A stretch of 61,595 nucleotides of DNA, filler included, from 4 parts of 4 records of this genome joined end to end with filler, not necessarily neighbours in it; one strand, 5' to 3'. Counted from the whole stretch's first letter, positions 27,966 through 50,275 are shown. The notes: generated by a model from the sequence alone, not told the origin. Translations and numbers: made by a program.

Positions 27966-28070
27966 AGAGTTCCGGCCCCTGTTGCCACACCCGTTCCTAC
28001 ATCCCTGGTTCTGCTGTTCTCGGGGGTTGCAGGGTTTGCGGCTTTGAAAAGGAAGAACGTTATGAATTAG
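27966..28070 (+). CDS. C-terminal fragment of a PEP-CTERM-type (PxP variant) sorting-signal protein
   Basis: Translates as RVPAPVATPVPTSLVLLFSGVAGFAALKRKNVMN*: motif, TM helix and basic tail. Confidence 0.8.
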   Translation, partial: RVPAPVATPVPTSLVLLFSGVAGFAALKRKNVMN

Positions 28071-28099
28071 AGCGGGATGCTGATTCGGATTGATAATCG

Positions 28100-28135
28100 A
28101 GCGCAGAAAATAGCGATATTTTCTGCGCTATTTTT
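28100..28135 (+). terminator. Intrinsic terminator
   Basis: agcgcagaaaata gcga tattttctgcgct followed by attttt. Confidence 0.75.
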
Positions 28136-28236
28136 ATGTGGATTCGTTGGTTCCTCTCTCTGATTCTGTGCTAAATATTTGACAATTTTTGATTTTTGTA
28201 TTGTAACAATAGAAACTTAAATTCAGGGAGTTATGG

Positions 28237-30342: not shown

Positions 30343-30354
30343 AAGGAGGGCGGC

Positions 30355-30936: not shown

Positions 30937-30945
30937 GAGATTGCT

Positions 30946-33783: not shown

Positions 33784-33813
33784 TATCCGGAATTATGAAT
33801 AAGGAACAGCGTA

Positions 33814-34590: not shown

Positions 34591-34592
34591 CC

Positions 34593-35690: not shown

Positions 35691-35795
35691 GTGTGTGAAA
35701 ATTTATTCCTATATATAGGTTGAAAACTACATAGGTCGCAGAGGATTGTAACCATAATTTCATAGAAATATGGTTATTGTTGCCGTTTTTGTGGC

Positions 35796-35811
35796 TGGTA
35801 CAAAAATTGCA
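35796..35811 (+). promoter_or_regulatory. Sigma54 (-24/-12) promoter upstream of PEP-CTERM gene
   Basis: TGGTAC-AAAAA-TTGCA has the canonical GG-N10-GC spacing. Confidence 0.75.
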
Positions 35812-35883
35812 CTGTATCGTGTAGTTTCGCGGTTTAGCGATTTTGGTAGTAAAACTAATCAACCTTTTTATGGGAGGATTTTG

Positions 35884-36441
35884 ATGAAAATGTTCAAACG
35901 GCTGACGTGGTTTCTTTTTGTTGCTCTCTTTCTTTTAGTCGGTGGTGCGGCTTCTGCTTCGACGGTTATAAACCCGCCGCTAATGAAGTATAACGGTGCC
36001 TGGCTGCCTGATAGTGATAATGATATCCTGGCTTTCAAAGTGCCTGGTCATAGTATTGGGTTAAGTCTTTATGATTGGGGTAATCCAGGAGAATTATTGA
36101 ATCTGGCACCATCAATGCTGATCATGGAGAGCGTTGCAGGGGTTGGGATTCTTAAGTTAAGGTTTGATCAAGATGGGAGCGGCAATTGGTTCTTGACGGA
36201 TTTGCTTGACAATAGACTATCCTTGGGGGATTCAAGAGAATTCGGTATCAGTTTAGGCGGATCTTTTGAGTACAATGTCGCAGAAACCCCCGAACATGAT
36301 GTGTTTGTCCTTTATAATGATAATAACAGGGTGTATGTCCTGAATGACGTCACTCCTTTGGCCGCGCCCATTCCTACTGCCTTAATTCTTTTTGGCAGCG
36401 GGCTCCTGGGCCTTGTGGGACTGAAACGTAAGAACTATTAA
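35884..36441 (+). CDS. PEP-CTERM-type (PIPT variant) sorting-domain protein
   Basis: GGAGGA RBS before ATG 35884; signal peptide; C-terminal APIPTALILFGSGLLGLVGLKRKNY. Confidence 0.85.
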   Translation: MKMFKRLTWFLFVALFLLVGGAASASTVINPPLMKYNGAWLPDSDNDILAFKVPGHSIGLSLYDWGNPGELLNLAPSMLIMESVAGVGILKLRFDQDGSGNWFLTDLLDNRLSLGDSREFGISLGGSFEYNVAETPEHDVFVLYNDNNRVYVLNDVTPLAAPIPTALILFGSGLLGLVGLKRKNY

Positions 36442-36471
36442 GCCCACCGTTTTAGGTTCAAGAAAAACAGA

Positions 36472-36512
36472 CACCCTGGGTGGTCATGGTACGTGACCAC
36501 CCAGGATGTTTT
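36472..36512. terminator. Terminator hairpin between convergent genes
   Basis: cctgggtggtca...tgaccacccagg followed by T-run. Confidence 0.7.
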
Positions 36513-37039
36513 TATTTGTAGTACCGGTCCTTTTCACTGTAGATGCAGCCGCAGTACTGCTGGCGGTACATCTCCAGGCGTTTTGATTCTTCTATTCCCT
36601 GTTTCCAGCCCTCCCGGAAATCCCGGTACACGAATTTGATTCCCTCTTTCCTGGCGATGGCCTCGGCGGTCTCACAGATAAGTTTGTGGTTCTGGAACTT
36701 GCTGTAGAGAAGGGTCGAGGAGAACCCGTCAAATTTTCCTTTTTTGGCAATCTTGGCCGTTGCCTTGAGGCGGTCGTAATAGCAGAACCGGCACCGGTCC
36801 GCTTCCCGGAACGCCACGGATCGAAGAAAGCGTTCCAGCTCATACCCCTTCTGCCAGATCATTCCAAGCCCCTGGGCCTCGGCGTATGCCTTCAGGGTCT
36901 CTTCCCGTTTCATGCATTCTGTCAGGGGGTGGATGTTGTGGCGATAGAAGAATCCCATCACCTCCATGCCCTCTTGTCTCAGCACCTCAAGGGGATAGAT
37001 GGTGCAGGGGCCGCAGCAGCAGTGTAAAAGGATCTTCAA
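36512..37039 (-). CDS. queH: Epoxyqueuosine reductase QueH (DUF208)
   Basis: LLHCCCGPC, NIHP, RCRFCY, MYRQQYCGCIYS. Confidence 0.9.
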   Translation of the reverse strand: MKILLHCCCGPCTIYPLEVLRQEGMEVMGFFYRHNIHPLTECMKREETLKAYAEAQGLGMIWQKGYELERFLRSVAFREADRCRFCYYDRLKATAKIAKKGKFDGFSSTLLYSKFQNHKLICETAEAIARKEGIKFVYRDFREGWKQGIEESKRLEMYRQQYCGCIYSEKDRYYK

Positions 37040-37728
37040 TCTCTCTCTCCGAAAATGGCGGTTCCGATTCTCACCATGGTGGCGCCCTCTGCAATGGCCA
37101 CCCTGAAATCCCCGCTCATGCCCATGGAAAGGTGGTCCATGGAGATTTTCGGGATCTTCTCCCGTTCAATGACGGATTTTATCCCGGCCATGGCCTTGAA
37201 GAAGGGACGTGCCTTTTCCGGGGCGTCAAAAAACGGGGGCATGCCCATGAGTCCCCTTACGGAGACATTTTCAAGGGGGGAGATCTCTTTCACAAGGGCC
37301 AGGGCGTCGTCTGCGCCGGTTCCGGATTTGGACGCCTCCTGGCTGATGTTGATCTGGATCAGGATCTTCTGGATCTTGCCGATCTTCTTTGCCTGCTTGT
37401 CGATTTCCCGTGCAAGCTTCAGGGAGTCCACCGTATGGATCAGGTCAAAGTGCTTTACGGCAAAGCGCGCCTTGTTGGACTGAAGGTGGCCGATGAAGTG
37501 CCAGACCGCGGGAATCTCTCCCAGGGTCTCGATCTTGTCAATGGCCTCCTGGATGTAGTTTTCACCGAGAATGGCGACCCCTGCATCCACAGCCTCTTTT
37601 ACCAATGCCGCACTCTTTCTCTTGCTGACGCTGACAAGGTGGACCTCGTCGGGGTTGCGGTTCGCTGCCCTGGCGGCGCTCCGGATCTCATCCTGTATGG
37701 TCAGTAGTCGGTTTTTAATGTCATTCAT
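37036..37728 (-). CDS. yggS: PLP homeostasis protein YggS/PLPBP
   Basis: LVSVSK, GENYIQE, WHFIGHLQSNK, LSMGMSGDF, VRIGTAIFG. Confidence 0.95.
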   Translation of the reverse strand: MNDIKNRLLTIQDEIRSAARAANRNPDEVHLVSVSKRKSAALVKEAVDAGVAILGENYIQEAIDKIETLGEIPAVWHFIGHLQSNKARFAVKHFDLIHTVDSLKLAREIDKQAKKIGKIQKILIQINISQEASKSGTGADDALALVKEISPLENVSVRGLMGMPPFFDAPEKARPFFKAMAGIKSVIEREKIPKISMDHLSMGMSGDFRVAIAEGATMVRIGTAIFGERD

Positions 37729-37740
37729 GGTTTTTGGGTT

Positions 37741-38352
37741 CTATTTATTAGGGGTTGATTCGTTGTTTGGGGAAAGGGTGATCACCCCTTGTGCCAGGAG
37801 AATTTCGATCACCTCGCAAACGGGAAGGCCGACAACGTTGGTGTAGGAGCCGTTGATGCTTTTTACCAGAAAGGTGCCAAGCCCCTGGATCGCATAGGCC
37901 CCAGCCTTGTCAAAGGGCTCGTCCGTACCCACGTACCACTGGATCTCCTGGTCAGATAGCTCCTTGAACTTCACCTCGGTGGTGACAGCCCGGGTGATGG
38001 TCTTGCCCTCGTTGCCGCAGCACAGGGTAAAACCGGTGTAGACCGTATGGGTACGATTGCTCAACCGCTTGAGCATGGCAGCGGCATGGTCGATGGAATC
38101 CGGTTTTTCAAGGATTTTGTCATCGATCACCACCACGGTGTCGGCCCCCAGGGTCCAGGCCTCCGGGTGGCGGGCGGCCACGAACCGGGCCTTTTCCATG
38201 GATAACCGTTTCACATAGGCTTCGGGTGATTCCGAACCCAGCATCTTCTCTTCGATGTCTGCCGGCTCCACAGTAAACCGGATGCCCGCCTGCTCGAGCA
38301 GGTACTTTCTCCGGGGGGACTGGGACGCCAGAATTAGTTTTTTTGTATTCAT
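37741..38352 (-). CDS. maf: Maf nucleoside triphosphate pyrophosphatase
   Basis: LILASQSPRR, GADTVV, KAGAYAIQG, NVVGLP. Confidence 0.95.
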   Translation of the reverse strand: MNTKKLILASQSPRRKYLLEQAGIRFTVEPADIEEKMLGSESPEAYVKRLSMEKARFVAARHPEAWTLGADTVVVIDDKILEKPDSIDHAAAMLKRLSNRTHTVYTGFTLCCGNEGKTITRAVTTEVKFKELSDQEIQWYVGTDEPFDKAGAYAIQGLGTFLVKSINGSYTNVVGLPVCEVIEILLAQGVITLSPNNESTPNK

Positions 38353-38480
38353 GGGACACTCTTTTACCAGAACCGGTTTTCCCTTACAAGGGGGTTCTCC
38401 CTTTGCCTGTTTTTTTTAGTCGATTTTCAAGAATTTTGCTTGCAATATTCTGACGCATACTATATTAATACCCCTGATTT

Positions 38481-38509
38481 GCCTGGGTGGCGGAACTGGT
38501 AGACGCAAG
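38481..38509 (+). tRNA. 5' part of a tRNA, probably tRNA-Leu (truncated by contig end)
   Basis: GCCTGGGTGGCGGAACTGGTAGACGCAAG has a Leu-type acceptor and D-arm; anticodon not visible. Confidence 0.8.
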
Positions 38510-38609
38510 NNNNNNNNNNNNNNNNNNNNNNNNNNNNNNNNNNNNNNNNNNNNTTAATTAATTAANNNNNNNNNNNNNNNNNNNNNNNNNNNNNNNNNNN
38601 NNNNNNNNN
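38510..38609. other. Artificial contig-joining linker
   Basis: N-run, TTAATTAATTAA, N-run. Confidence 0.98.
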
Positions 38610-38680
38610 GAGGAACCGGATGCGGGAAAACCGCACGTCTGGATCTGTGCGCTGGGTAACTGACGTTGTTGGCGTGAGAG
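38610..38680 (+). mobile_element. Group II intron 3' remnant (domain V plus degenerate domain VI)
   Basis: GAGGAACCGGATGCGGGAAAACCGCACGTCTGGATCTGTGCG resembles domain V (GCGG-GAAA tetraloop hairpin, AC bulge); the following sequence resembles a decayed domain VI. Confidence 0.7.
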
Positions 38681-38696
38681 CTGAGGAGGAACCGGA

Positions 38697-39263
38697 ATGT
38701 CAGATCCAAATTGGCTTGTGCAAATTATTATAGGAGCGTTTTTAGGGTTGATGGCCCCTTATAGTGTACGACTAATACAATGGCCATTCAAGAGATTAAG
38801 GCCACATGTTTTGAAGGATAACTGGTGGCTATACCACTTTTCTGAAATTGAAAGTGAACCCAAACTGATTGAATCCGAGTGTATAATATCTACCGGCCTT
38901 AGTAGCAAGTTAAAATTCAACACCAAACAAACGCAGACTGGTTTGTGCTACAAAGGAATAGTAAAGTTGGAAGATGGTTCGGCACAATTTCTCCTTGTCG
39001 GTAATTCAGCAGATTACCATCACGACGAGCATACCATTTTTCGGTTTTATCTTCCCTTAAGATCGGTCAAGAACTTAGTAGGAGGAGTACATGTTTCGTA
39101 TAGTCATGACAAAAACCCATACGCAGCAACTGCAATATTAAGCACTTCACAGCTATCTCCAGAACAAGCAGAAAAAGAGTTACAAAGTCGTTCAAAACGA
39201 CCTGACGGAAAATCAATGATCGTCGTACGGAAAACGAATTATAAGAACAGCGAATGGGGATAG
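38697..39263 (+). CDS. Hypothetical protein with N-terminal TM helix and beta-rich soluble domain (AT-rich accessory gene)
   Basis: GAGGAG RBS; WLVQIIIGAFLGLMAPY hydrophobic segment; lower GC than, and opposite orientation to, the neighbouring phage genes. Confidence 0.7.
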   Translation: MSDPNWLVQIIIGAFLGLMAPYSVRLIQWPFKRLRPHVLKDNWWLYHFSEIESEPKLIESECIISTGLSSKLKFNTKQTQTGLCYKGIVKLEDGSAQFLLVGNSADYHHDEHTIFRFYLPLRSVKNLVGGVHVSYSHDKNPYAATAILSTSQLSPEQAEKELQSRSKRPDGKSMIVVRKTNYKNSEWG

Positions 39264-39288
39264 GACTCCCAATCACTAAGGAGCCCTA
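39261..39288. terminator. Hairpin between the convergent accessory gene and phage genes
   Basis: taggactcc...ggagcccta imperfect inverted repeat. Confidence 0.4.
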
Positions 39289-39330
39289 CCACACCGCCAA
39301 CAAAGCTTGCGGTATCTGATTCCGTTAAAG

Positions 39331-39486
39331 TTAACATTCCTTTGGTTCGGACACTCGGCACAGGCAGTCCTTACTACCACCTTCAACATGCAGTCGTCCA
39401 TTTTGTATTGATATGGTGGACCCACAGGAGCTACACACCAGTGGCCCACATAGGACACACGCCTCATAGACGCTGTGGTTATCCAT
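39331..39486 (-). CDS. Small Cys-rich phage protein (51 aa, not in ORF track)
   Basis: GGAGG RBS; MDNHSVYEACVLCGPLVCSSCGTTISIQNGRLHVEGGSKDCLCRVSEPKEC*; start overlaps the DUF5664 stop. Confidence 0.6.
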   Translation of the reverse strand: MDNHSVYEACVLCGPLVCSSCGSTISIQNGRLHVEGGSKDCLCRVSEPKEC

Positions 39487-39817
39487 CGTGTTCCTCCATG
39501 AGCCTCAATTGCAATCGTGCCAAGGCGTTCCAAGCAGTAGCGATGTCGTGGGGCATGTCGGTCTCAGGGTCAACCGCCTCGATTCGTTCCTTCAGGTAGT
39601 GACGCATCATGGCATCGGTGTACCGCTCCACGCCGTTCGGAACCTGGAGGAAACCACCACGGCTGTACTTGTTGGCACCAAATGTTGCTAACCGCATGAC
39701 CTCCAAAAGGGCCTCCCCAAACATCCCGAGGATACCGGCCTGTACCTTACCGGCGTCGAGCTTGGCACCCGGATCATGGGCGGCAATCCCAAGGGGATCA
39801 GTTTCAATGTTCTCCAT
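39479..39817 (-). CDS. dATP/dGTP diphosphohydrolase-domain protein (DUF5664)
   Basis: GAKLDAGK...FGANKY...YTDAMMRH...DPETDMPH...AWNAL. Confidence 0.85.
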   Translation of the reverse strand: MENIETDPLGIAAHDPGAKLDAGKVQAGILGMFGEALLEVMRLATFGANKYSRGGFLQVPNGVERYTDAMMRHYLKERIEAVDPETDMPHDIATAWNALARLQLRLMEEHDG

Positions 39818-39968
39818 AGGTTCTCCTTACGAACCCCGAGGCCGCCTTAAGCGAACCCCGGACTCTTGCTTTGCGTTTATCATTGAGTTGTTTCTGAAGG
39901 ACTGTCCGTTGGTTATTGAGCAGGATGGCATCGGGATGGTGGATCAGGACAAAGTTAGGCTTGTTCAT
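39804..39968 (-). CDS. Small basic phage hypothetical protein
   Basis: MNKPNFVLIHH... (54 aa), overlapping both neighbours as in a phage operon. Confidence 0.45.
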   Translation of the reverse strand: MNKPNFVLIHHPDAILLNNQRTVLQKQLNDKRKARVRGSLKAASGFVRRTYGEH

Positions 39969-40329
39969 GGTGGGCCATATACTCCTCATAATGTTGATGG
40001 AGGAAATCCATGGAGGCAGCCTCCCTGATGACATCCCGCCCACTAATCTCGGTGTACCGCTCTTTGATATAGTCAATGGCGTCCCGGATGAATCCCAAGA
40101 ACCCCTGGTAATCAGAGAAGAGGTGGCAGGAGTCGGTATCTTCGTCGATATAAAGGCTGATCTTCATGAGCATCATGTTGAAAAGGATCTCAGCGTAATG
40201 CTTGTTGATCTCTTCAGGCTCATCAGTGCCCATGGCTTGGCGTATGATGGCCCGTATGGTCTCAAAGCGGTCGTACATGTTGTGACCATCCAGCTCCACC
40301 AGATAGATCAGGTCCCTTGAGCAGTTCAT
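39955..40329 (-). CDS. Phage hypothetical protein
   Basis: MNCSRDLIYLVE... after a GGGGA RBS; ATG overlaps the upstream stop. Confidence 0.6.
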   Translation of the reverse strand: MNCSRDLIYLVELDGHNMYDRFETIRAIIRQAMGTDEPEEINKHYAEILFNMMLMKISLYIDEDTDSCHLFSDYQGFLGFIRDAIDYIKERYTEISGRDVIREAASMDFLHQHYEEYMAHHEQA

Positions 40330-40517
40330 ATGGTCCCCCTTACGATTGCACCCAGGGGCACAGTGTTTTTGATGGGGGTCCACGCATCGCACATACCGAT
40401 CACATCAACTTTGCGCTTGGGTTTGGACATCAGGTTCGGGTAGTCGTTACGGCTGGCAAGCTTACAGCCACGGGCTTTGGCACAGGTGTTGCAGTTATGA
40501 TTCGAATTCAAGGACAT
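40326..40517 (-). CDS. Small Cys-containing phage hypothetical protein
   Basis: AAGGA RBS; CNTC...C...C; first gene after the third promoter-like motif. Confidence 0.55.
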   Translation of the reverse strand: MSLNSNHNCNTCAKARGCKLASRNDYPNLMSKPKRKVDVIGMCDAWTPIKNTVPLGAIVRGTI

Positions 40518-40546
40518 TAGTGGTTTCCTTTCTATGTGTTAATTCA

Positions 40547-40569
40547 GTAGGATTGTTAGTAGTGAGGGA
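40547..40569 (-). promoter_or_regulatory. Putative third phage-RNAP promoter (partial match)
   Basis: TCCCTCACT-ACT-AACAATCC shares the 9-nt core and the downstream ACAAYCC with the copy at 46945-46985; intergenic, after the DNA polymerase gene. Confidence 0.5.
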
Positions 40570-40627
40570 CAGCAGAGGCACACCAGTAGCAGCGTAAGAA
40601 ACACCACTACTGGTGACCGGTCGATTT

Positions 40628-42415
40628 TCAATGTGTATCTTTCCAGGATGATCCGATGTCGAACGTGCCGTCCATCGGGATGTTGAGCTTAAAGTAGAGC
40701 CCGGCGTCGATGATGGCCTGCCTTGCGATCTCGCCGCACTCCTGGGCATAATCGGGGTCCGCTTCGATCTGGACCTCATCGTGAATATTCAGGACAGGGA
40801 GACACCTCTTGAAATCCAGGCGTTCCCACATGAGACAGCAGGCTTTCTTCATAACGTAGGCACCTGCTGATTGGAGCAATAGGTTAAGAGCAGAATGTGA
40901 CGACCGGCTGTAGAGCCGTTGACCAGCCAGGCCAGTGATCCAGCCATGCTTCTCCACCTGTTTGGTGATCTTGTCGATCAGGGCACCCAGGTGTGGCAGG
41001 TTCCGCAGGAAGTTATCCCGCAGTTTCTTACCCAGCTTGGCATCACCTTTGCCTAACAGCTTGTTCCCGGCACCGTAGATGAAGCCATAGAACCATGTCT
41101 TGCCGTCAGATCTACTGAGCCCCAGGGCATCGGCGTTTTTCTGGTGGATGTCACCATTGAGAACAATGTCGATGTATTCCGGATCATTCATGAAGCTCGC
41201 CAAGAGGCGCAACTCAAGGCCAGCAGCATCGCAGCCCACCATGACTCTGCTTGGTGTTGGCACAAAGACTGACCGGCAGCGCTTACCATACTTGACACCA
41301 TTAGCAGGGACCTGAGCCAGGTTGGGATTACTATGGGTGCATCGGTTGGTGATCGCACCGCAACTGTTGACATACCCACGGATACGCCCGTCGTCGTCGA
41401 TGAATTTGACCCATGCTTTGGCACCGGTACTCACCTGGCTCAGACGCTTCTTGATCAGCTTGTACCGGGCTAGAGGTCCGCACTCGGGATAGACCGATGT
41501 CAGGGCCTCAAGGATCTCATCATCAATCTTGGGCTCCTTGGACTTGTCGGTGAACTCAACGGGTTTCCAGCCGTGGGTCCTTATCAGATATTCATAGATG
41601 TGTTTGTTTGCATTGGGATTGAACTCAACGTACTTGATCTTAGTCATTGAGGCACCCTTGATGTAGCCGTACCTCTTGTTGTCAGCCTTTGGTGTAAACA
41701 GCTTGCCCTTAACGATCACCGGCCTGTTAAAGATGTCGGCAATCTCAAGGCGTGTAGTCTCCAGATCAGTCCAGAGATCAGCGATCAAATTGTCCAGAAC
41801 CACCTGATCAGCATACACACCGATTCGCATCTGAAGGGAAATGAACCGTGCGAAATCATGCTCAATATCACAGGCATCAGTGCCAAACCCAGGGCGTTCC
41901 CTGAGCCGTTCGAGTAGATCCACGGTTACCCGGACATCCTGTTTACAATAGGTTGTCATCTCAGGTTCCCAGAACTGCCAGTCCTGATCCTTGCCGTAAT
42001 CGCCTTTGTAATTACCCAGGCGATAACCATAGGCCTCCAGGCTGTGAGAGCCGATCAGCTTAGGTGGCAGCATACCCTTACGGGCACGGGCATAGTCTCC
42101 TTGTTTGATAGTTGGGTTGAGTAGCCTGGCAAGCACCAATGTATCGGTGGATTTTGCTGGCGGTTTGTACCACGGGTAGACCATGGCGATGGCCTGCTCA
42201 TCGTAGCCAATAACATTGTGGCCGCAAGTCTCATCTCCAGCCTCAAGAAGTCTGCGGACTCCAAGTTCAACGGGTCTCTTCTCTTGATCATAGATTTCAT
42301 ACTGGTTTGTCTCTGTATCGAAGATCACAATGCAGTGGATTTTGGTTAATTGACGAATATCCTTTTTAGGTTCAGGCCTGAGTAGGCCATCTGTTTCAAC
42401 GTCATATATGAGCAA
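40628..42415 (-). CDS. T7 gp5-like DNA polymerase (family A, 3'-5' exo + pol)
   Basis: YDVETDG exo I, GHNVIGYD exo II, HSLEAYG, YCKQDV exo III, DAAGLELR motif A, KTWFYGFIYG motif B, IHDE motif C; TTG start after GGAGG. Confidence 0.96.
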   Translation of the reverse strand: MLIYDVETDGLLRPEPKKDIRQLTKIHCIVIFDTETNQYEIYDQEKRPVELGVRRLLEAGDETCGHNVIGYDEQAIAMVYPWYKPPAKSTDTLVLARLLNPTIKQGDYARARKGMLPPKLIGSHSLEAYGYRLGNYKGDYGKDQDWQFWEPEMTTYCKQDVRVTVDLLERLRERPGFGTDACDIEHDFARFISLQMRIGVYADQVVLDNLIADLWTDLETTRLEIADIFNRPVIVKGKLFTPKADNKRYGYIKGASMTKIKYVEFNPNANKHIYEYLIRTHGWKPVEFTDKSKEPKIDDEILEALTSVYPECGPLARYKLIKKRLSQVSTGAKAWVKFIDDDGRIRGYVNSCGAITNRCTHSNPNLAQVPANGVKYGKRCRSVFVPTPSRVMVGCDAAGLELRLLASFMNDPEYIDIVLNGDIHQKNADALGLSRSDGKTWFYGFIYGAGNKLLGKGDAKLGKKLRDNFLRNLPHLGALIDKITKQVEKHGWITGLAGQRLYSRSSHSALNLLLQSAGAYVMKKACCLMWERLDFKRCLPVLNIHDEVQIEADPDYAQECGEIARQAIIDAGLYFKLNIPMDGTFDIGSSWKDTH

Positions 42416-42471
42416 GGACTACACCTCCCTGTATGCGGAATCGTTAGCCACGTTATGGGCCTCGCATTTGT

Positions 42472-42660
42472 TCATATGGTTCTCCTATGCTTTCTGATAA
42501 ATTGATGAATGAGCCGCCGGTATATCCACACATCCATTCTGTCGATGGACACATGGGCGATCAGGAGATCACAGTAGCGGCGGGCGTTATGGAGTTGGGG
42601 AAGGGTTCGGCAGGAGGTGATTATCTTGTGCATCCTCCTGAGAGGATCATTAGAAGTCAT
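42472..42660 (-). CDS. Small phage hypothetical protein
   Basis: 62-aa ORF overlapping the helicase stop, same strand as the operon. Confidence 0.4.
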   Translation of the reverse strand: MTSNDPLRRMHKIITSCRTLPQLHNARRYCDLLIAHVSIDRMDVWIYRRLIHQFIRKHRRTI

Positions 42661-44311
42661 TCAGGTTTGAGGCGTTGTCAGTACCATCCCAGGCGTTCTC
42701 CTCGAATGGCAGCAGGCGTCCAGTCGTTGGGTTATACTCAAGGGTATCAGCAATGCCGACCGCACCAGTGAGCCTGTTCTTGAGGACCCGTACTGTTCTG
42801 ACATTGGGCTGATCACCTTGCTGGTCACCCTCAAGGCTGATCACAAAGTCGGGGATCTGTTCCAGGGCTGCGGACCCGCGCAGATCCGTGAGTGAAACCT
42901 GGCGTCCTTCATTCCAGGATTTACCTTGACCGGGCCTCTTCAGATGAGACACAGCAATGACGGTCACACCGGTCTCCTCGACAAGGGAACGCAGGGCTGT
43001 CATGAGTTGATCAAGTTGTTTTCGTTCCGAGGATTCCACCTCATCGTTGCCGGACACCACGATTGACACATGGTCCACCAGCAGGATATCCATCTCCAGG
43101 GCACGGACCAGATAGCGCATCTTGGTTAGCACGGTGGTAATATCACTGGAGCCCCAGTGTTGATCGAATGCTATGTTGTCGTTGTGGATCACCGCCTCTG
43201 CTGCCTTGGTGATCTCCGCATCTGATGGGCGCTTGATGTGGATCGGTTGGTTCAACCACAGGCTCATGAACCCTTCGCATGACTGCTTGAGATCCTCTTC
43301 CCATGCCATCACACCAACCTTCTTGCCATGGTTCATCAACAGGTCGTAGCAGATTTCCTTACCCAGGGTGGATTTACCAATGCCGGAGCCAGCGGTAATC
43401 AGGTAGAGCCGCTTGCCGTGGATACCCAGTGTCTTAGCATTGAGCTTTGGATATGGTGTCTGGACCCCAGGCTCGGGCCGAAAGAGCAGCGTCGCCAGGG
43501 GAACATCACGTCCCAGGACAATGCCGTCAGGACGCCAGGGTTTGGCCTCAAAGATGCACTTTGGGACCTCAGCACCACGGTTTTCAAGCAAGAGTTCATT
43601 GGCATCCTTGAGACCATTCCAGGTGGCAATCGAGGCCTTACCCACGGTGAGTAATTGGGCACACTGCTTGGCTGCTTTCTGACCCGGTTCATCAGCGTCG
43701 AACGCAATGACCACCTTCTTGAATGACTCAACGAATCTCAGATTCTGCTTGATGTATTTGAGGGCACTGGCTGCACCGCTGGGCACCGACACCACGGGGA
43801 TCTTGAGGTTAAATGCCTGGGAGATGGTGAGACAATCGAGTTCACCCTCGGTGATGACCAAAAGTCGGCCACCGGGTTGCCAAAGGTGCTGACCGAAAAG
43901 CTCCAGGTGTTTTACCTGTCCGGTCCACCAGAAGTCCTTGTCCTTGGTCCGGTAATGCTGGGCCACCTCTTTGTTGGAGTGACGGTAGGTTGCGACCTGG
44001 ACGATTCCACTCTTGGTCCGGGCGTATCCATAGCCGTACTTTTGGCAGGTCTTCTTGAGGAGCTTTCGCGCTTTAATCTCTTTAATGTCCGGGCGTAGCA
44101 GGCTTCCTGAATCCGATCCAGAGTTACCGCCAGTCCAATCACCAGGATCATCATTGTTGTCGGGTCCATCGGCCTCCTCCACTATGGCTTTCTTGTCGTA
44201 GGCCTCGCAGACGAAACAGTAACCATGTCCATCGGTATAGACTGCATAGCCATCGCTGGAACCACAGGCCTCATGGGGACACGCTGTTTTATAATGGTCT
44301 CCATCATGCAC
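42650..44311 (-). CDS. T7 gp4-like primase-helicase
   Basis: CPHEACGSSDG...GYCFVC Zn finger, ITEGELD and FDADEPG TOPRIM, AGSGIGKST, LVDH, VSHLKR, DLRGS, KNR; acidic tail ending DF; GTG start after GGAGG. Confidence 0.96.
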   Translation of the reverse strand: MHDGDHYKTACPHEACGSSDGYAVYTDGHGYCFVCEAYDKKAIVEEADGPDNNDDPGDWTGGNSGSDSGSLLRPDIKEIKARKLLKKTCQKYGYGYARTKSGIVQVATYRHSNKEVAQHYRTKDKDFWWTGQVKHLELFGQHLWQPGGRLLVITEGELDCLTISQAFNLKIPVVSVPSGAASALKYIKQNLRFVESFKKVVIAFDADEPGQKAAKQCAQLLTVGKASIATWNGLKDANELLLENRGAEVPKCIFEAKPWRPDGIVLGRDVPLATLLFRPEPGVQTPYPKLNAKTLGIHGKRLYLITAGSGIGKSTLGKEICYDLLMNHGKKVGVMAWEEDLKQSCEGFMSLWLNQPIHIKRPSDAEITKAAEAVIHNDNIAFDQHWGSSDITTVLTKMRYLVRALEMDILLVDHVSIVVSGNDEVESSERKQLDQLMTALRSLVEETGVTVIAVSHLKRPGQGKSWNEGRQVSLTDLRGSAALEQIPDFVISLEGDQQGDQPNVRTVRVLKNRLTGAVGIADTLEYNPTTGRLLPFEENAWDGTDNASNLNDF

Positions 44312-44552
44312 GTTCCACCTCCGCATGGATCTCATCAACGCTCAGATCTTCGACCAGCAAGGTGTCCATCAATCGCAGGTTGCGGGCCTCAATGTTCGGA
44401 TCATAGAAATCCCTGGGGTCCAGACCCAGGCTCAACATACCGATGCGGACATCGTTAAGGACAATCCTTGGGACCAGGATTCGTTTGATCTTGACGCCGT
44501 TCTCTTTGACATACTCAATGATCTGCTTCAGGTCCTTTATGCTTTTATTCAT
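44304..44552 (-). CDS. Phage hypothetical protein
   Basis: AAGGAG RBS, 82 aa, overlaps the primase start. Confidence 0.65.
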   Translation of the reverse strand: MNKSIKDLKQIIEYVKENGVKIKRILVPRIVLNDVRIGMLSLGLDPRDFYDPNIEARNLRLMDTLLVEDLSVDEIHAEVERA

Positions 44553-44562
44553 AGGGTTCTCC

Positions 44563-45381
44563 TTATTGATTGATCTTGAGATAGACGGCGAGTTTAGGAC
44601 GAAGGGTATTCAGATCTGCATGGCTCTTGAAAATGGTCACAGCGTCGCGGTGCCACTGGGTTATGGGGTAACGGGTGCCAGGGATCTTATGATAGGGTAG
44701 ATCATACTTATCGCTGATCTCCTTGAGATGCATACCGATCATAAGCTGAACATGATTGGAGCCAGCACTGCTGAAGACCTGTTTAAGCCAGGGGATCGCC
44801 GTACTGGTCATGAACTCAGGGTTCTCATACTTCTCTTTGAGACGGTTGGCTTCACGCTTTGCTGCACTGGCTGTTCCCATTGCACTGGCTTCACGCTTCC
44901 GGCTGATGTGAGCCTTGGTCCTGATGGCCTCGTCACGCTCCAGTTTGATCTGCTTCATTTTCTGAAGAACCCCGATCATATAGTCAGGATCTTCCAGGGT
45001 CTTCGCCAGGGCGTCGTCGGTCATGTAGGTGCCACCTGTTTTACGGATGGTGGGTAGGACATCTTCCATTACCCATTCCTCAAACTGTTCAGCCCAGGGG
45101 AGTTTGGATTTCATGATGAGGCGGTAGACATCTGATTCGGGAATGATGGTCAGACCACGGGATGGAATATTTACCAAAGGTAGCGAAACGCTACTTTTGA
45201 GGATTGACGCACGTTTGCAATGTTTCTTGATGGCATCTCTTGAGTTCACATACCCCAAAGCTTCTGCCACATCCTTACCAACAAACCAGGGATTACCATC
45301 CCGTTCAACAATCCGAACCTCACATAGTGTCGGGGAGGTGTTATCTTCATAGTCGAAAGTAAAAGCCTTAAGCTCAGTCAT
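44563..45381 (-). CDS. BRO-N domain (antirepressor-like) protein
   Basis: VRIVERDGNPWFVGKDVAEALGY, IPESDVYRLIMKSKLP, FEEWVMEDVLPTIRKTG; AAGGAG RBS before ATG 45381. Confidence 0.9.
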   Translation of the reverse strand: MTELKAFTFDYEDNTSPTLCEVRIVERDGNPWFVGKDVAEALGYVNSRDAIKKHCKRASILKSSVSLPLVNIPSRGLTIIPESDVYRLIMKSKLPWAEQFEEWVMEDVLPTIRKTGGTYMTDDALAKTLEDPDYMIGVLQKMKQIKLERDEAIRTKAHISRKREASAMGTASAAKREANRLKEKYENPEFMTSTAIPWLKQVFSSAGSNHVQLMIGMHLKEISDKYDLPYHKIPGTRYPITQWHRDAVTIFKSHADLNTLRPKLAVYLKINQ

Positions 45382-45438
45382 AGGGTTCTCCTTGTATGAG
45401 TGATGGCGTGGCACCTTTCGATACCACGATGTTCGGTT

Positions 45439-45624
45439 CTATTTGTCTGTGTATTTGTCGCGGGCCTGTGCATAATTGGCGTAGAACAGGATGCAGTGTT
45501 CGCAGTCCGTCGAGTTGCAATCGTATGTGTCAGACAGCAGGCATTCATCACCGGATGGTTCGCTGAATGATTCAGTCACCGCTGGCAACTGGAGCGGTAT
45601 CGTTTGTTCAATGGTGAGACTCAT
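45439..45624 (-). CDS. Small acidic Cys-rich phage protein (61 aa)
   Basis: AGGAGA RBS then MSLTIEQTIP...ECLLSDTYDCNSTDCEHCILF; true start lies inside the longer track ORF. Confidence 0.6.
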   Translation of the reverse strand: MSLTIEQTIPLQLPAVTESFSEPSGDECLLSDTYDCNSTDCEHCILFYANYAQARDKYTDK

Positions 45625-45640
45625 AATGTTTCTCCTATTG

Positions 45641-46069
45641 TTATTCGTTAAGCCATTCCTCGGGGACGAACTTGTTGGCCCACAGAAAGCGGTTCTTCTC
45701 GCACCACTGGGCGTAAGTTGTCTTGCTGGATTGACTGAGTTTGTTCTGGGAATTCTGAAAGACGAACCGGATGTCAGCGTCGGGGTGAGCCTTGCGTACC
45801 AGGATCGCTTTCTTGCGGTCGGCGGGCTCGAACAGACCTTTGGCCTCGATATAAATGATGGCACCGGACTGCCGCTTAATGATGAAGTCAGGGGTGTATC
45901 GTTTAGATTCAGCAGGAACTGTGTAGGGGAGAGTGATTGTCTCATAGTCAAACCCAATGCCACGCTGGGTAAGGTTCTGAGCAAGGTGCTTCTCAAACAT
46001 TGAGCGGTACGGTGCCATCTCTACCCGTTGGTGCTTCGTAGGGTAGAAACGACGACGGTAACCAGACAC
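45641..46069 (-). CDS. T7 gp3-like endonuclease I (Holliday junction resolvase)
   Basis: YRSMFE, YTPDF, IEAKGLF, IRFVFQ, TTYAQWCEK. Confidence 0.93.
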   Translation of the reverse strand: MSGYRRRFYPTKHQRVEMAPYRSMFEKHLAQNLTQRGIGFDYETITLPYTVPAESKRYTPDFIIKRQSGAIIYIEAKGLFEPADRKKAILVRKAHPDADIRFVFQNSQNKLSQSSKTTYAQWCEKNRFLWANKFVPEEWLNE

Positions 46070-46689
46070 TAAAAGTCCGGTTCGCCCTGATCATCAGGTC
46101 CACCGGATGATTCACCATCCCAGTCATCGCCAGCACCACCACCGGCAGCTACCAGCTCATTGACCTTCACACCCACCAGACGCAATGACACACCGGCCTT
46201 ACCAGAGGCAGGATTATAGAAGGCGTACCCCTCGTATTCGATCTGGATCTTGGAGCCACTACCGATCTTGCCGATCCGTTCCTCCAGATCAACCAGCTTG
46301 ACCCACTTGCCGCGCTCATCATAGTAGTTGACGTAGATGGGCTTCATTTCACCGGTCTTCTTATCCTTGAATTCAGCCAGGCGTTTGAACCTGAAGACAG
46401 TGTCGCCGGTCAATTCATCCTGATCGTCGTATACCTCTTCATATGGGTAATACTTCCGGGCTTCATCGCGCTCTTTCTTCTTGAGACTCTTGGTCTCGAT
46501 CTCAAACGCTTCATCAACCAAGGAGTTGATCTGTTCAATAAGGTCCTGACATTCAGGGCTATCGGTAAGCAGGAGCAGATCAGTCTTCCATGACTTCTTG
46601 CCTTTGTATTCATCCGGGATGTTGAGCCAGGGGTAACGTGCAGTTCCTTCAGTGGTTTTGTAACGGGGAGCATATTGCTTTTTAGCCAT
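46069..46689 (-). CDS. T7 gp2.5-like ssDNA-binding protein
   Basis: GTARYPWLNIPD, IGSGS, AGVSLRLVGVKV; acidic tail ending EPDF; directly upstream of endonuclease I. Confidence 0.88.
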   Translation of the reverse strand: MAKKQYAPRYKTTEGTARYPWLNIPDEYKGKKSWKTDLLLLTDSPECQDLIEQINSLVDEAFEIETKSLKKKERDEARKYYPYEEVYDDQDELTGDTVFRFKRLAEFKDKKTGEMKPIYVNYYDERGKWVKLVDLEERIGKIGSGSKIQIEYEGYAFYNPASGKAGVSLRLVGVKVNELVAAGGGAGDDWDGESSGGPDDQGEPDF

Positions 46690-46697
46690 GGGTCTCC

Positions 46698-46889
46698 TTA
46701 ATTAATGATATCGGGGTTGATGTAGATGTCGATGGGCATGAAGCCATCATCGAATGCGTCCCACACTGCGGCAGGACTGATGTCGTGATCGTCAAGATTG
46801 TCCCAAACGTTTTTACTGAGATAGGCCTCATCGTCCTGGTACTCGGTGTAAGCACGTTCGATCCACTCTTGGATGCTCTTGGTTTTCAT
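46698..46889 (-). CDS. Small acidic phage hypothetical protein
   Basis: 63 aa, Asp/Glu-rich; first gene after the promoter copy at 46945-46985. Confidence 0.55.
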   Translation of the reverse strand: MKTKSIQEWIERAYTEYQDDEAYLSKNVWDNLDDHDISPAAVWDAFDDGFMPIDIYINPDIIN

Positions 46890-46944
46890 GTCGCTATTTC
46901 ATATGACCTCCATGTAAGGGTTAAGGGTTGAACCCGGCAAAATT

Positions 46945-46985
46945 TCGATGGGTTGTCTGAAGTGAGGGAGTTGTGGTCAGCATGA
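46945..46985 (-). promoter_or_regulatory. Putative phage-RNAP promoter, copy downstream of RNAP gene
   Basis: TCATGCTGACCACAACTCCCTCACTTCAGACAACCCATCGA; CCCTCACT core as in the T3 promoter; 34/41 identical to 49947-49987. Confidence 0.75.
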
Positions 46986-47000
46986 GGAAATTAGACCCTT

Positions 47001-47042
47001 CAAAAAATAGCAAAGGACCCGCAGTCCAGACGCAAAGGTCCG
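47001..47042 (-). terminator. Possible early terminator after RNAP gene
   Basis: ggacc...ggtcc stem followed by tttgctattttttg on the minus strand. Confidence 0.35.
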
Positions 47043-47087
47043 AACTACAGGAGTTTCCGTATGTCGACAGTTCATATCAGGAAGGTG

Positions 47088-49817
47088 TTAGGCAAAAGAA
47101 AAATCTGCCTGTAGCATTAGAGCCGGGTCCCAGGTCCCAGGCGTTATCCTTTCAGGAAGGCCTTGAGTAATGGTATCTAACACTTTCTCTGTGGCGGTAA
47201 TCAATGCCCCGATGCGCTTGGTCTCCTTGGGTTGCTCGACCTTTTCTATGTCTGCCTGGAGAGTAGCCAAGGTGTCAGTCCACCTAATCTCAGCTTGGTC
47301 TATTAAAGGTATGACGTCCTTTATAAAGGCATCAATCCTGTCATCATTGTAAAGTTCCATGAATGTACGTTGGAGGGTTTCATGCAGTTCGGCACTCACG
47401 GATGGGAGGGCAGCGAACGAGTCATGGATGACCACTATATCCTTATGTTCAAATGGATCTGGGACCCCCTGCTCGCCATCAATGAGATTGAACCCGGCGT
47501 TGCAGAACTCATTGATCACAGTCCGCAGGTGGCAGGCGTCATAGCTATGAATGAAGTTTGCAGCCATACCGTTCTTCATACGGCCTTGAGCCATGCCTTT
47601 ATCCTTGGGTTCCTGGACCCGTGGTTTCAGGTAGGTCCCGCCCCAGTAGGTATCAATTTGTTTCATAGCCATCTGGCGGTAGCTCATGGATACACGGACC
47701 CCATCAGGCATAGTCCATATCATGGGTGTATCAGCCTTGGCACATATCTCAGCAACCTCTTGCATCCAGTCCATGAATTGGGTCCCCTTGACAATGACCT
47801 GTCGCATTCCCTTACTGATCATCCCCTTGAGGTAAGTACAGGCGTTGAACTTCTGGTCGTCAGACACCTCGATCAGCTTCTTGCCTTTGTCCTCATGCTT
47901 CTGGAGCAGTTCCAATAGCTGCTTTACATATGTACGATCCTTGGCACCGTACACAAAGGTCATGACCGCTGCTTTACAGCATTTTCTTGTGATCACTCCA
48001 TCCCAGAGTTGCGCCATTTCGTTATCAGCTTGTGCATCAGCGTGAACGAGGGGTGCGATGACCTCAGCGACCTTGCCATAGATGTCATTTGGAAGGTGAT
48101 GCGGCATAAGATTAACCTCAAAGGCGCACACTTCATCCTTGAGCATACCGCTGATGTGCTGCAGGCCACTGCAAGATCCATCCTGGGCAGACGGGATGCG
48201 GCACATGAAGTCCGGAGACTTACCGGTCTTGAGCCAGTCGGCATACTCAAAGGTCCAGGCCAGATAGGTCAACGCCTTGTCAGCCTTGAGCCAGAGCGCA
48301 TTGTCACGCCAGGGGTTTTCAGCGTCGTCCAAGATCTCCCGTTCATGCAGATCCACCCACCGTTCACGATCCTCGAAGGACAGTTTGTCCACCGCCTTGT
48401 CATTCCAGGGTCCGGCGATTCCACAATCACAGGTCTCGGCGAAACACCCGGCACCATGCCTCTTGAACCACGCTTCCGCATGCGCACTGTTGCTGATAGG
48501 AAGCTCATTCTTCAAATAAATTAGGGACTTCCCCACATCGTTAGCCTGGGGAGACACATGGTTCTGCTTGCAGTTGATCCGGCCACGCCACTCGGCTGTA
48601 TAGCAGAAGTAGATGGCATCCTCATCCTTGAACCGGTTGGCGATCTCAATTTGCTTGAAAAAGCCGGACCTCTTGCTAACATTTTTGGCCCATGCTTCGT
48701 GCCTCAACATGTATGGTCTTTGAACTTTCTTATAGGCATCAAGGTTATTCTTCTTGAGATCCTCCATCTCTTCATCACTGGACCACGGGCGTACCGGGGC
48801 GTCCTCGAACAGTTTGGCTTTATCCAAAGGCACAACCCCTGCGATCCCGCCTTCGCGGTCCCGGATCTCTTTGATGATCTCCAGCATACGCTTGTTAATA
48901 CGCCAGGGGACTGCCTGCAGTTTGTTCACGGCGGTTTTGATAGGTTCCAGGTCACTAAGCTTGGGATCAGACTTATGGCTCTCCTTATTGGGACCCACCA
49001 GGTTATACCTCGTGCCTACATGCTGGCCCAGGTGCCCACCGTCGGACTCATTGGTCCAGTCCAGGGGTGGCATGACCATTGGCATATGCATGGGTTGACG
49101 AATCTCATGGTACTCATGGGCATTGTCCAGTTTAGCGACTATCTCAGGGTAGGGGACCCACATCTTGGTGGGCTTGTGCTTCTTATTGGTTTTAGCACTG
49201 TTGTAGATGTCCTCAACGTAGCCTACATGAGCGTTGCTACATAGGGTTGTCAGTAAGACCATACCCATCTTGATCCGGTCAGCCTCGGACCAGCGTTCAA
49301 ATGCTGTTTCTGGGCTGGTGTTCGCCCGGTTCTTGATGACGATCCGCTTCTGGCTATCACTCTTCATACGGACAAAGTTCTTCACATTGTTGAAGTACTG
49401 TGGATTCTTAACCTTGAAGTTAATGTACCCGACGTGATCATTGACAGCGGTCCCAATGGCTTTACAGACAGCGGTCAGGGGGATACCATTCTCATGGATG
49501 ATATTGAACACCGTCCTCAATGTAACAAAGGCGACCTCCATAGGGCTAATATCCTTGAGATACTTCCTTGCAATAATATCTCTCCTGCAACTCTTGGCAC
49601 CGGTACGTTTGAGGATAGCTATTAAGCCATCAGATTTGCCTTTACCTCTAAGGAAGGGGTTCATATAAGATCTGATTGCTGCGGCCTCTGATGCCATCGT
49701 TTCGACGCCTCCTTTGGTCCGTGCATTTTGCAGTGCTTTACGGTAGGACGCGATGCCAATCTCAACTGATTCCATTTCGAGTGCGAGCTGACGATTGATC
49801 ATATCTTGAGTGATCAT
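47088..49817 (-). CDS. Single-subunit T7/T3-like DNA-directed RNA polymerase
   Basis: PMVMPPLDW, WRINK, WRGR, DGSCSGLQH (motif A), RKCCKAAVMTFVYG (motif B), NFIHSYDACH, IHDSF (motif C), C-terminal DFSFA; AAGGAG RBS. Confidence 0.97.
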   Translation of the reverse strand: MITQDMINRQLALEMESVEIGIASYRKALQNARTKGGVETMASEAAAIRSYMNPFLRGKGKSDGLIAILKRTGAKSCRRDIIARKYLKDISPMEVAFVTLRTVFNIIHENGIPLTAVCKAIGTAVNDHVGYINFKVKNPQYFNNVKNFVRMKSDSQKRIVIKNRANTSPETAFERWSEADRIKMGMVLLTTLCSNAHVGYVEDIYNSAKTNKKHKPTKMWVPYPEIVAKLDNAHEYHEIRQPMHMPMVMPPLDWTNESDGGHLGQHVGTRYNLVGPNKESHKSDPKLSDLEPIKTAVNKLQAVPWRINKRMLEIIKEIRDREGGIAGVVPLDKAKLFEDAPVRPWSSDEEMEDLKKNNLDAYKKVQRPYMLRHEAWAKNVSKRSGFFKQIEIANRFKDEDAIYFCYTAEWRGRINCKQNHVSPQANDVGKSLIYLKNELPISNSAHAEAWFKRHGAGCFAETCDCGIAGPWNDKAVDKLSFEDRERWVDLHEREILDDAENPWRDNALWLKADKALTYLAWTFEYADWLKTGKSPDFMCRIPSAQDGSCSGLQHISGMLKDEVCAFEVNLMPHHLPNDIYGKVAEVIAPLVHADAQADNEMAQLWDGVITRKCCKAAVMTFVYGAKDRTYVKQLLELLQKHEDKGKKLIEVSDDQKFNACTYLKGMISKGMRQVIVKGTQFMDWMQEVAEICAKADTPMIWTMPDGVRVSMSYRQMAMKQIDTYWGGTYLKPRVQEPKDKGMAQGRMKNGMAANFIHSYDACHLRTVINEFCNAGFNLIDGEQGVPDPFEHKDIVVIHDSFAALPSVSAELHETLQRTFMELYNDDRIDAFIKDVIPLIDQAEIRWTDTLATLQADIEKVEQPKETKRIGALITATEKVLDTITQGLPERITPGTWDPALMLQADFSFA

Positions 49818-49874
49818 AGACGTGAATCTCCTTATGATGTCTGGACAAACTAATAGGTGGTATGAAGGGGGATT

Positions 49875-49943
49875 GATCTTTGAGTTAGATCATGGGATTA
49901 GGTGGAGCTTAGGGATGGATCTTTAGGTTGGATCTTAGGGTGA
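49875..49943. repeat. Five degenerate 13-bp repeats headed by GATC/GAGC in the RNAP leader
   Basis: gatctttgagtta, gatcatgggatta(ggtg), gagcttagggatg, gatctttaggttg, gatcttagggtga. Confidence 0.65.
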
Positions 49944-49946
49944 TAA

Positions 49947-49987
49947 TCGTTGGGTTCTTCAAAGTGAGGGAGTTATAGTCAGCATGA
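49947..49987 (-). promoter_or_regulatory. Putative phage-RNAP promoter directly upstream of the RNAP gene
   Basis: TCATGCTGACTATAACTCCCTCACTTTGAAGAACCCAACGA; repeat of 46945-46985. Confidence 0.75.
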
Positions 49988-50060
49988 AAATAAATAGGTC
50001 GGTGGGCCGTGCTGACCCTCTTTGAGTCAGCAAATGGGGTGTGGAACAGAGCGTGAAACG

Positions 50061-50095
50061 AAAAAAGGGACCCTTGGGTTTAACCAAGAGTCCCT
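50061..50095 (-). terminator. Intrinsic terminator downstream of the tRNA
   Basis: Minus strand agggactcttgg ttaaac ccaagggtccct ttttt. Confidence 0.8.
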
Positions 50096-50118
50096 ATTAA
50101 TTCAGTAGCTTATGTTAA

Positions 50119-50146
50119 TGGCGCGCCCGGCGCGATTCGAACACGC
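50119..50146 (-). tRNA. 3' part of a tRNA (probably tRNA-Arg); candidate att core
   Basis: GCGTGTTCGAATCGCGCCGGGCGCGCCA: T-loop, acceptor strand and encoded CCA. Isotype inferred from the acceptor stem only. Confidence 0.8.
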
Positions 50147-50246
50147 NNNNNNNNNNNNNNNNNNNNNNNNNNNNNNNNNNNNNNNNNNNNTTAATTAATT
50201 AANNNNNNNNNNNNNNNNNNNNNNNNNNNNNNNNNNNNNNNNNNNN
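50147..50246. other. Artificial contig-joining linker
   Basis: N-run, TTAATTAATTAA, N-run. Confidence 0.98.
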
Positions 50247-50275
50247 AGCGCGTCTACCAATTCCGCCACCTGGGC
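50247..50275 (-). tRNA. 5' part of a tRNA, probably tRNA-Leu (truncated)
   Basis: GCCCAGGTGGCGGAATTGGTAGACGCGCT; TACATTTG -7 promoter element at 50302-50295. Confidence 0.8.

Follow-up and report, generated by a model that had tools for sequence, protein, structure and literature searches.

We analysed a 61,595-nt stretch of DNA (the window), in which a preliminary description had pointed to a T7-like phage module starting at the 3' end of a tRNA. The whole module lies on one metagenomic contig of 11,537 nt (38610-50146; the phage contig, B2), which we take, with good confidence, to be the arm from the RNA polymerase (RNAP) gene to the DNA polymerase gene, about the first quarter to third of the genome, of a divergent temperate T7-like phage. 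The tRNA-RNAP junction had been proposed to be that of an integrase-type T7-like phage with its RNAP at the prophage edge, and the only close relative found in IMG/VR shows exactly this arrangement.

A conserved T7-like gene block

The genes for RNAP, SSB, endonuclease I, a Bro-N domain protein, primase-helicase and Pol A were all assigned by Pfam, and all lie on the minus strand in T7 order. Both the order and the presence of a Bro-N gene had been read from the sequence beforehand and are borne out by these assignments. The sole close relative in IMG/VR by RNAP is IMGVR_UViG_3300005589_000752 (G001), a sequence of 39,916 nt, and identities in the following list are to its proteins unless stated otherwise.

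47088-49817, minus strand: single-subunit T7-type RNAP, 909 aa, intact open reading frame (ORF); PF00940 7e-77, PF14700 2e-19; 60%
46698-46889, minus strand: conserved small ORF, 63 aa; 54% to G001 2823-3017
46069-46689, minus strand: T7-type SSB, 206 aa; PF21265 6e-16; 57%
45641-46069, minus strand: endonuclease I, 142 aa; PF05367 4e-44; 75%
44563-45414, minus strand: Bro-N domain protein, 283 aa; PF02498 1e-23; 52% to G001 4068-4943
44304-44552, minus strand: conserved small ORF, 82 aa; 33% to G001 4954-5223
42650-44338, minus strand: T7-type primase-helicase, 562 aa; DnaB_C, Toprim_2, Helic-prim_T7_N; 73%
40628-42415, minus strand: Pol A, family A DNA polymerase, 595 aa; PF00476 3e-41; 67% to a 599-aa G001 protein
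39955-40392, minus strand: conserved phage ORF, 145 aa; 31% to G001 9502-9948
39479-39817, minus strand: MazG/MazZ-like dATP/dGTP diphosphohydrolase N-terminal domain protein, 112 aa; PF18909 1e-18; phrog_5033, phrog_801
39331-39486, minus strand: ORF of 51 aa, the last gene colinear with the relative; blastp 43%, 9e-8, and tblastn, to G001 10683-10874

Over the first 10.9 kb of G001 the two are thus colinear; the proteins of the six core genes are 52-75% identical, and five small ORFs match as well. The six core genes are uninterrupted, and the lengths of their products are within 9-43 residues of those of the G001 proteins. At the nucleotide level the core genes are only 65-70% identical between the two phages. 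The phage contig ends 2 kb past Pol A.

The Bro-N gene stands between endonuclease I and primase-helicase in both phages, a position that is occupied by the lysozyme gene in T7, and no lysozyme or amidase gene was seen in the RNAP-to-Pol A arm of either phage. The PF18909 domain is known from phage MazZ/MazG-type enzymes; the MazZ-like gene has no counterpart in G001, and no other nucleotide-modification gene was found on the phage contig. A further ORF at 45439-45996 was rejected as spurious, having no family match and overlapping endonuclease I in another frame.

The relative is integrated beside a tRNA gene

In IMG/VR, G001 is classed as a provirus and as 98% complete. Downstream of the arm that matches the phage contig it carries, on the same strand, genes for an exonuclease, a ligase, portal, scaffold, major capsid, tail and tail fibre proteins and the large terminase. 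Its last gene encodes a 363-aa tyrosine integrase and is preceded by a MarR-like winged helix-turn-helix ORF, whose match (23.6 bits) is just under the Pfam cut-off of 24.6. The IMG/VR record has been cut so that it begins precisely at the RNAP ATG and ends at the stop codon of the integrase gene.

An untrimmed copy of G001, L005, is contained in the 211,975-nt metagenome contig Ga0209692_10000169; the two are 100% identical over 12,598 nt. In L005 a complete tRNA-Lys(CTT) gene lies at 9682-9757 on the strand of RNAP, and 238 nt separate it from the RNAP ATG at 9996. Upstream of this tRNA are ordinary bacterial chromosomal genes, namely those for an aminotransferase, a Mur ligase, ResB, a cytochrome c assembly protein, multihaem cytochromes and a Mo-oxidoreductase. 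This makes the relative an integrated T7-like prophage whose RNAP lies at the tRNA edge and whose integrase lies at the opposite one.

The tRNA end and the spacer upstream of RNAP

The right end of the phage contig has the same layout as the relative's RNAP edge. The following features were found in this region and between RNAP and SSB.

50119-50146, minus strand: 3' end of a tRNA, 28 nt (T arm, acceptor strand, discriminator G, CCA), recognized by its 3'-end grammar and cut by the contig end; candidate core of an attachment (att) site
50066-50095, minus strand: intrinsic terminator-like hairpin, 12 bp followed by TTTTTCGTTT, beginning 24 nt past the tRNA end
49947-49987, minus strand: 41-nt promoter-like repeat, copy 1, 130-170 nt upstream of the RNAP ATG
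49870-49940, minus strand: four direct repeats A(A/T)GATC(N)A(N)C, downstream of the promoter-like repeat and ahead of the ribosome-binding site of RNAP; candidate operators or arm-type sites
46945-46985, minus strand: 41-nt repeat, copy 2, core ACTCCCTCACT, in the RNAP-SSB gap; candidate promoter for the phage RNAP

On the sense strand the order is thus tRNA end, hairpin and T-run, 41-nt repeat, four GATC direct repeats, the ribosome-binding site AAGGAGATT and the RNAP ATG at 49817. The gap between the tRNA 3' end and this ATG measures 301 nt, in accordance with the distance of about 300 nt given earlier, and consists of unique sequence.

The 28-mer follows the grammar of a tRNA 3' end, with a 5-bp T stem, a TTCRANY loop, 7 nt, a discriminator and CCA, and it is the sole match to this grammar in the window, against 0.02 matches per shuffle. 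The sequence itself occurs once in the window, with none expected in shuffles. Its acceptor strand is CGGGCGC and its discriminator G, and it may be Arg-like. BLAST of a 30-mer against phage records named no isotype, giving weak, uninformative matches with mixed annotations (tRNA-Pro, repressor, unannotated ends). The tRNA assigned earlier to the start of the module stands as a 3' end that fits the grammar, but not as a gene with a callable cloverleaf, given that only 28 nt of it are present.

The two copies of the 41-nt repeat are 83% identical, and their exact 11-mer core ACTCCCTCACT occurs twice in the contig, both times on the sense strand. From their recurrence, upstream of RNAP and of SSB, we infer that they may be promoters of the phage's own polymerase. 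The GATC direct repeats could be binding sites for a repressor or for the arm-type contacts of an integrase or excisionase. GATC occurs 105 times in the 11.5 kb of the phage contig (9.1 per kb), where by our own arithmetic about 3.9 per kb are expected for a random even base composition, and the 13-nt GATC-containing repeat recurs near 44492, 44577, 44705 and 49802.

Apart from the gene order from RNAP to about 10.9 kb, the relative shares with the phage contig a tRNA 3' end 238-301 nt upstream of RNAP, a terminator-like hairpin with a T-run after the tRNA, a promoter-like repeat with a further copy in the RNAP-SSB gap, GATC repeats (two copies at the matching position in L005) and the same ribosome-binding site. 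The relative's promoter-like repeat has a core of its own, ACGTCTACACAGAG, and its copies upstream of RNAP, in the RNAP-SSB gap, ahead of the portal gene and downstream of the terminase gene look like a set of phage-polymerase promoters.

L005 9866-9896, sense strand: ACGTCTACACAGAG repeat
G001 2725-2742, 14997-15004 and 33519-33523, sense strand: ACGTCTACACAGAG repeats

The sequence difference between this repeat and the one on the phage contig is what a joint divergence of polymerase and promoter specificity would produce. The tRNAs differ too, being tRNA-Lys(CTT) in the relative and, on the phage contig, a tRNA with acceptor strand CGGGCGC and discriminator G. That the same spacer layout follows two different tRNAs indicates phage DNA from the tRNA end onwards, and recombination within the 3' part of the tRNA.

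A deep RNAP lineage

The RNAP matched 2735 INPHARED phage records, all with less than 60% identity, and the best-listed 25 were 27-29% identical. Among 5.8 billion proteins only six homologues had at least 33% identity (74, 62, 60, 48, 42 and 33%), about five of them exceeding 40%. The 74%-identical homologue is encoded on a contig of 352 kb, and three more of the six on contigs of 212 kb, 87 kb and 4.7 Mb, sizes that lend further support to an integrase-type junction. The 33%-identical homologue (P0006) is on the 4.7-Mb contig, named by its source as Geobacter sp. SVR. Comparison of a wider RNAP alignment (A3) with IMG/VR gave, among the matches listed, only generic T7-like contigs at 25-30% identity, which served solely for the survey of proviruses and loci given below. 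Peptide-pattern scans of genome contigs, for the RNAP and for alignment A1, found no relative, with patterns too strict for homologues of about 33% identity such as that of Geobacter.

Temperate integrase-type T7-like phages, podoviruses with an RNA polymerase of their own, are already known as a kind. In the available text of one study, every attP of 12 pelagiphages lies between integrase and RNAP, with attB in tRNA genes and cores of 11-46 bp (10.1101/410191). In five IMG/VR proviruses that we hand-picked for an RNAP at the very edge, a tyrosine integrase was found within about 550 nt of the opposite edge in four. A tRNA was located at most 2.4 kb upstream of RNAP in 5 of 60 T7-like viral loci scanned (60 of at least 80 retrieved). 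Within this kind, the phage contig and its few relatives appear, by their RNAP sequences, to form a deep-branching lineage of temperate T7-like phages.

Contig limits in the window

The window joins four unrelated contigs with three artificial 100-nt linkers, as follows.

1-27865: contig A, GC 0.427
27866-27965, no strand: linker (44 N + TTAATTAATTAA + 44 N), identical to the other two
27966-38509: contig B1, GC 0.533
38481-38509, plus strand: right end of B1, 29 nt of a tRNA-Leu-like 5' part, aligned to ARAGORN-called tRNA-Leu genes elsewhere
38510-38609, no strand: linker (44 N + TTAATTAATTAA + 44 N), left limit of the phage contig
38610-50146: contig B2, 11,537 nt, carrying the whole T7-like module, GC 0.506
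50147-50246, no strand: linker (44 N + TTAATTAATTAA + 44 N), right limit of the phage contig
50247-61595: contig C, AT-rich, GC 0.358
50247-50275, minus strand: left end of C, 29 nt of a tRNA-Leu-like 5' part, aligned to ARAGORN-called tRNA-Leu genes elsewhere

Adjacency across the linkers has no meaning, and the closeness of the module to the rest of the window, which had been implied before, must be dropped. The spread in GC (0.43, 0.53, 0.51 and 0.36) suggests that the four contigs come from different source organisms. Three of the six internal contig ends are cut 28-29 nt into a tRNA gene. A stop about 30 nt into shared sequence would be the behaviour of a k=31 graph assembly at repeats, with k deduced from this pattern, and tRNA-internal contig ends are typical of short-k graph assemblies of mixed communities. 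The phage contig is cut by shared sequence at both sides, by the tRNA on the right and by a group II intron-like repeat on the left. Its striking traits, namely the abrupt start at a tRNA, the lack of late genes and the nearby host genes, arose from the concatenation of short k-mer-graph contigs. In practical terms this effect of concatenation is the larger lesson.

The last 720 nt of the phage contig (38610-39330) contain two features of a different kind.

38611-38711, plus strand: group II intron domain V/VI-like sequence; Rfam RF00029 25.4 bits (gathering score 40), RF04357 D5 25.2 bits
38697-39263, plus strand: ORFan of 188 aa, GC 0.40, opposite to the phage genes and not colinear with the relative

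The D5 hairpin of the intron-like stretch aligns well; the RF00029 score is below the gathering score. The sequence at 38610-38651 recurs, with 2-4 differences over about 40 nt, in further contigs of run X1 (probably the source run) whose depths are 22-226; an abundant intron family seems to be present in the source community, and this repeated element probably broke the assembly at the left end. The ORFan had no Pfam, PHROG or PADLOC match and no homologue at E ≤ 0.001 among the 5.8 billion proteins, and a moron, host DNA or chance are candidates for its origin. Its ATG lies inside the intron-like stretch, whose predicted end at 38711 falls on a codon boundary of the ORFan frame. The left 720 nt are most simply read as a moron or an intron inserted into the phage genome, at which the assembly broke.

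The neighbouring contig B1 is unrelated to the phage. It begins with a PEP-CTERM-like C-terminus (27966-28070, read from the sequence), followed by a bacterial exopolysaccharide export locus (28237-38352) with a 701-aa TPR protein, Poly_export/SLBB, a beta-barrel porin, a Wzz/GNVR chain-length protein and AAA_31 and AAA_22 ATPases. After this locus come QueH, a YggS-like pyridoxal-phosphate protein and Maf.

A probable temperate phage with its RNAP at one prophage edge

The circular map of such a phage would have a tyrosine integrase just upstream of RNAP and, between the two, an attachment site matching the 3' part of a host tRNA. Integration would place the integrase at one prophage edge and the tRNA at the opposite edge, a few hundred nucleotides ahead of RNAP. 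The tRNA end of 28 nt (50119-50146) would then be att-site sequence, and the genes for exonuclease, ligase, structural proteins, packaging, regulator and integrase would be located on parts of the genome that the assembler left unjoined. Within the spacer, the terminator after the tRNA may insulate RNAP from tRNA read-through, the 41-nt repeats upstream of RNAP and SSB would be read by the phage polymerase, and a repressor or an integrase/excisionase might bind the GATC repeats between this promoter and the RNAP start.

Several observations weigh against this reading. Anywhere in the window we found no integrase, no structural gene and no second att copy, the 28-mer having no second copy with up to 3 mismatches, and G001 genes beyond nt 10874 gave no tblastn match there. 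No attB or attR was seen, and no host gene flanks the module on the phage contig. An exact search of IMG/VR for the 28-mer also gave no match, and the second copy beside a tyrosine integrase, which had been suggested as a check, turned up in neither place. ARAGORN called no tRNA gene in the window, and Rfam gave no tRNA match, with only noise in the last 100 nt; the contig stops at 50146, after just 28 nt of the tRNA. Since three of the six contig ends are inside tRNAs, the break of the phage contig at its tRNA is generic for the assembly and is no evidence of branching at an att site. The counterpart of the phage contig in run X1, probably its source, is identical and no longer than 11,537 nt; it therefore offers no extension and is not independent support. 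Colinearity with G001 stops at 39331, and the last 720 nt, with a GC of 0.43 compared with 0.51 and holding the opposite-strand ORFan and the intron-like piece, would also fit a deletion boundary. Finally, the temperate nature of the phage is drawn from one close relative with context and from the contig sizes of the homologues.

The most simple reading of the missing late and integrase genes is that the contig is truncated. That no exonuclease, structural or integrase gene is visible had been remarked on from the start and is true, but it reflects the contig ends and is no demonstrated trait of the element. The tRNA piece looks alike in attL and attP, and we lean only slightly towards an integrated copy (attL) over a free one (with attP or a tRNA borne by the phage). 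In the text seen of the pelagiphage study, some of these phages carry a full tRNA between integrase and RNAP, as with the tRNA-Leu of HTVC011P and HTVC025P (10.1101/410191).

Alternative explanations

The explanation that survives best after that of a temperate phage is a truncated or defective prophage remnant, or a satellite-like replication-transcription island, with its true end near 39330 and with no exonuclease, structural or packaging genes. The end of G001 colinearity at 39331, the lower GC of the residual 720 nt with their homologue-free ORFan and group II intron-like fragment, and the absence from the window of the relative's late genes all speak for it. However, the contig just stops 720 nt further on at an artificial linker, with no host gene seen on that side, none of the six Pfam-assigned core genes is damaged, and the closest relative whose context is available is a 39.9-kb provirus rated as 98% complete. 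The neighbouring "host" genes Maf, YggS and QueH belong to another contig. Furthermore, satellites and phage-inducible chromosomal islands are short elements without virion genes that have defined att ends, whereas both ends of this module are assembly breaks and linkers. A possible deletion boundary at 39331 is the only remaining room for an island or satellite, and we found no positive support for the replication-only island, satellite or defective prophage that had been put forward. We regard a remnant or island of this sort as unlikely.

A strictly lytic T7-like phage with its own complete tRNA gene upstream of RNAP and no integrase is similarly unlikely, if anything a shade more so. The phage contig carries no integrase, and some T7-like phages do have a full tRNA near RNAP, as in the five scanned loci and in the two pelagiphages with tRNA-Leu named above. 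Yet the published cases with a tRNA at this place, as far as the text seen describes them, carry integrases too, the only close relative with context has both a host-flanked tRNA and an integrase, and four of the six closest RNAP homologues are on contigs that far exceed the genome size of T7-like phages.

A T7-derived island consisting of RNAP and replisome only, seated at a tRNA and with its late genes replaced by the ORFan and a group II intron, would be a more specific form of the first alternative and is in our view distinctly improbable. If true, it would represent a kind of satellite, or of domesticated transcription-replication module, that has not been described among autographiviruses.

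That the adjacency of tRNA and RNAP is an assembly chimera at a repeated tRNA k-mer is hardly credible: contigs of this assembly do often break at tRNAs, and this one ends about 30 nt into sequence common to other contigs, with a summed depth of 60 in its last bin compared with 15.7 elsewhere, but the shared stretch is at the very contig end with nothing joined across it, the 301-nt spacer is unique, and the independent assembly of the relative has the same tRNA-terminator-repeat-RNAP layout.

Hosts and significance

The host flank of the relative contains cytochrome c7/c3-type genes beside those for ResB and cytochrome c assembly. From this multihaem-cytochrome flank and the Geobacter homologue, the hosts of the temperate phage represented by the phage contig are probably anaerobes like those of its relatives, and there is a hint that the hosts of the wider lineage are Geobacter-like anaerobes. 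By title, no paper in the literature searched is devoted to T7-like prophages of Geobacter, which, to judge from those titles, have received little attention. Short, low-depth pieces 90-95% identical to parts of the phage contig were seen in run X2, a sediment metagenome, with a share of 0.08. A related strain may thus be present elsewhere, the share being too small to name a habitat. A third run, X3, gave no matching piece.

Temperate T7-like phages are an established and still small group, to which the phage contig and its relatives add a deep branch. If the reading of a Geobacter-like host holds, the lineage would offer a new orthogonal pair of RNAP and promoter together with a compact control region of tRNA, terminator, promoter and repeats.

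Comparison with known systems

The closest comparison is with G001/L005, which has the gene order and spacer layout described above. The two differ in their tRNAs and in the sequence of their promoter-like repeats, the relative has no MazZ-like gene, and the phage contig has nothing that matches G001 beyond nt 10874.

Pseudomonas phage LUZ100, in what is available of its description, encodes its integrase upstream of RNAP, with a MarR-like regulator further upstream, and transcribes the phage RNAP gene from a phage-specific promoter; T7-like prophages are there called widespread (PMC10134795). The phage contig likewise has a promoter-like repeat upstream of RNAP, whose function is suggested by its two copies, and the relative has the MarR-like ORF before its integrase, with a match under the Pfam cut-off (23.6 compared with 24.6 bits). 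The likeness to LUZ100 is one of description.

Among the three isolates ranked best by RNAP are two temperate-type Autographiviridae, Rhizobium phage Pasto (MT708545) and Caulobacter phage S2B (MN857473). Both have a tyrosine integrase upstream of RNAP, again in keeping with an integrase-type junction, and their RNAPs are only about 28-29% identical to that of the phage contig. In Pasto a helix-turn-helix gene precedes the integrase, and RNAP is preceded by a tRNA-Leu and a terminator. Unlike the lineage described here, Pasto has several genes between integrase and RNAP, and its tRNA is on the opposite strand. S2B encodes a RusA-type resolvase and a lysozyme, whereas the lineage of the phage contig has endonuclease I and the Bro-N protein.

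The pelagiphages of the HTVC019P group and cyanophage P-SSP7, according to the text seen of the study, have the integrase upstream of RNAP, the attP in a non-coding stretch between the two and the attB in tRNA genes, so that integration sets RNAP beside a tRNA (10.1101/410191). By description this is the arrangement proposed here for the phage contig. The hosts of those phages are marine, in contrast to the relatives of the phage contig, which are found beside multihaem-cytochrome genes and in a Geobacter chromosome.

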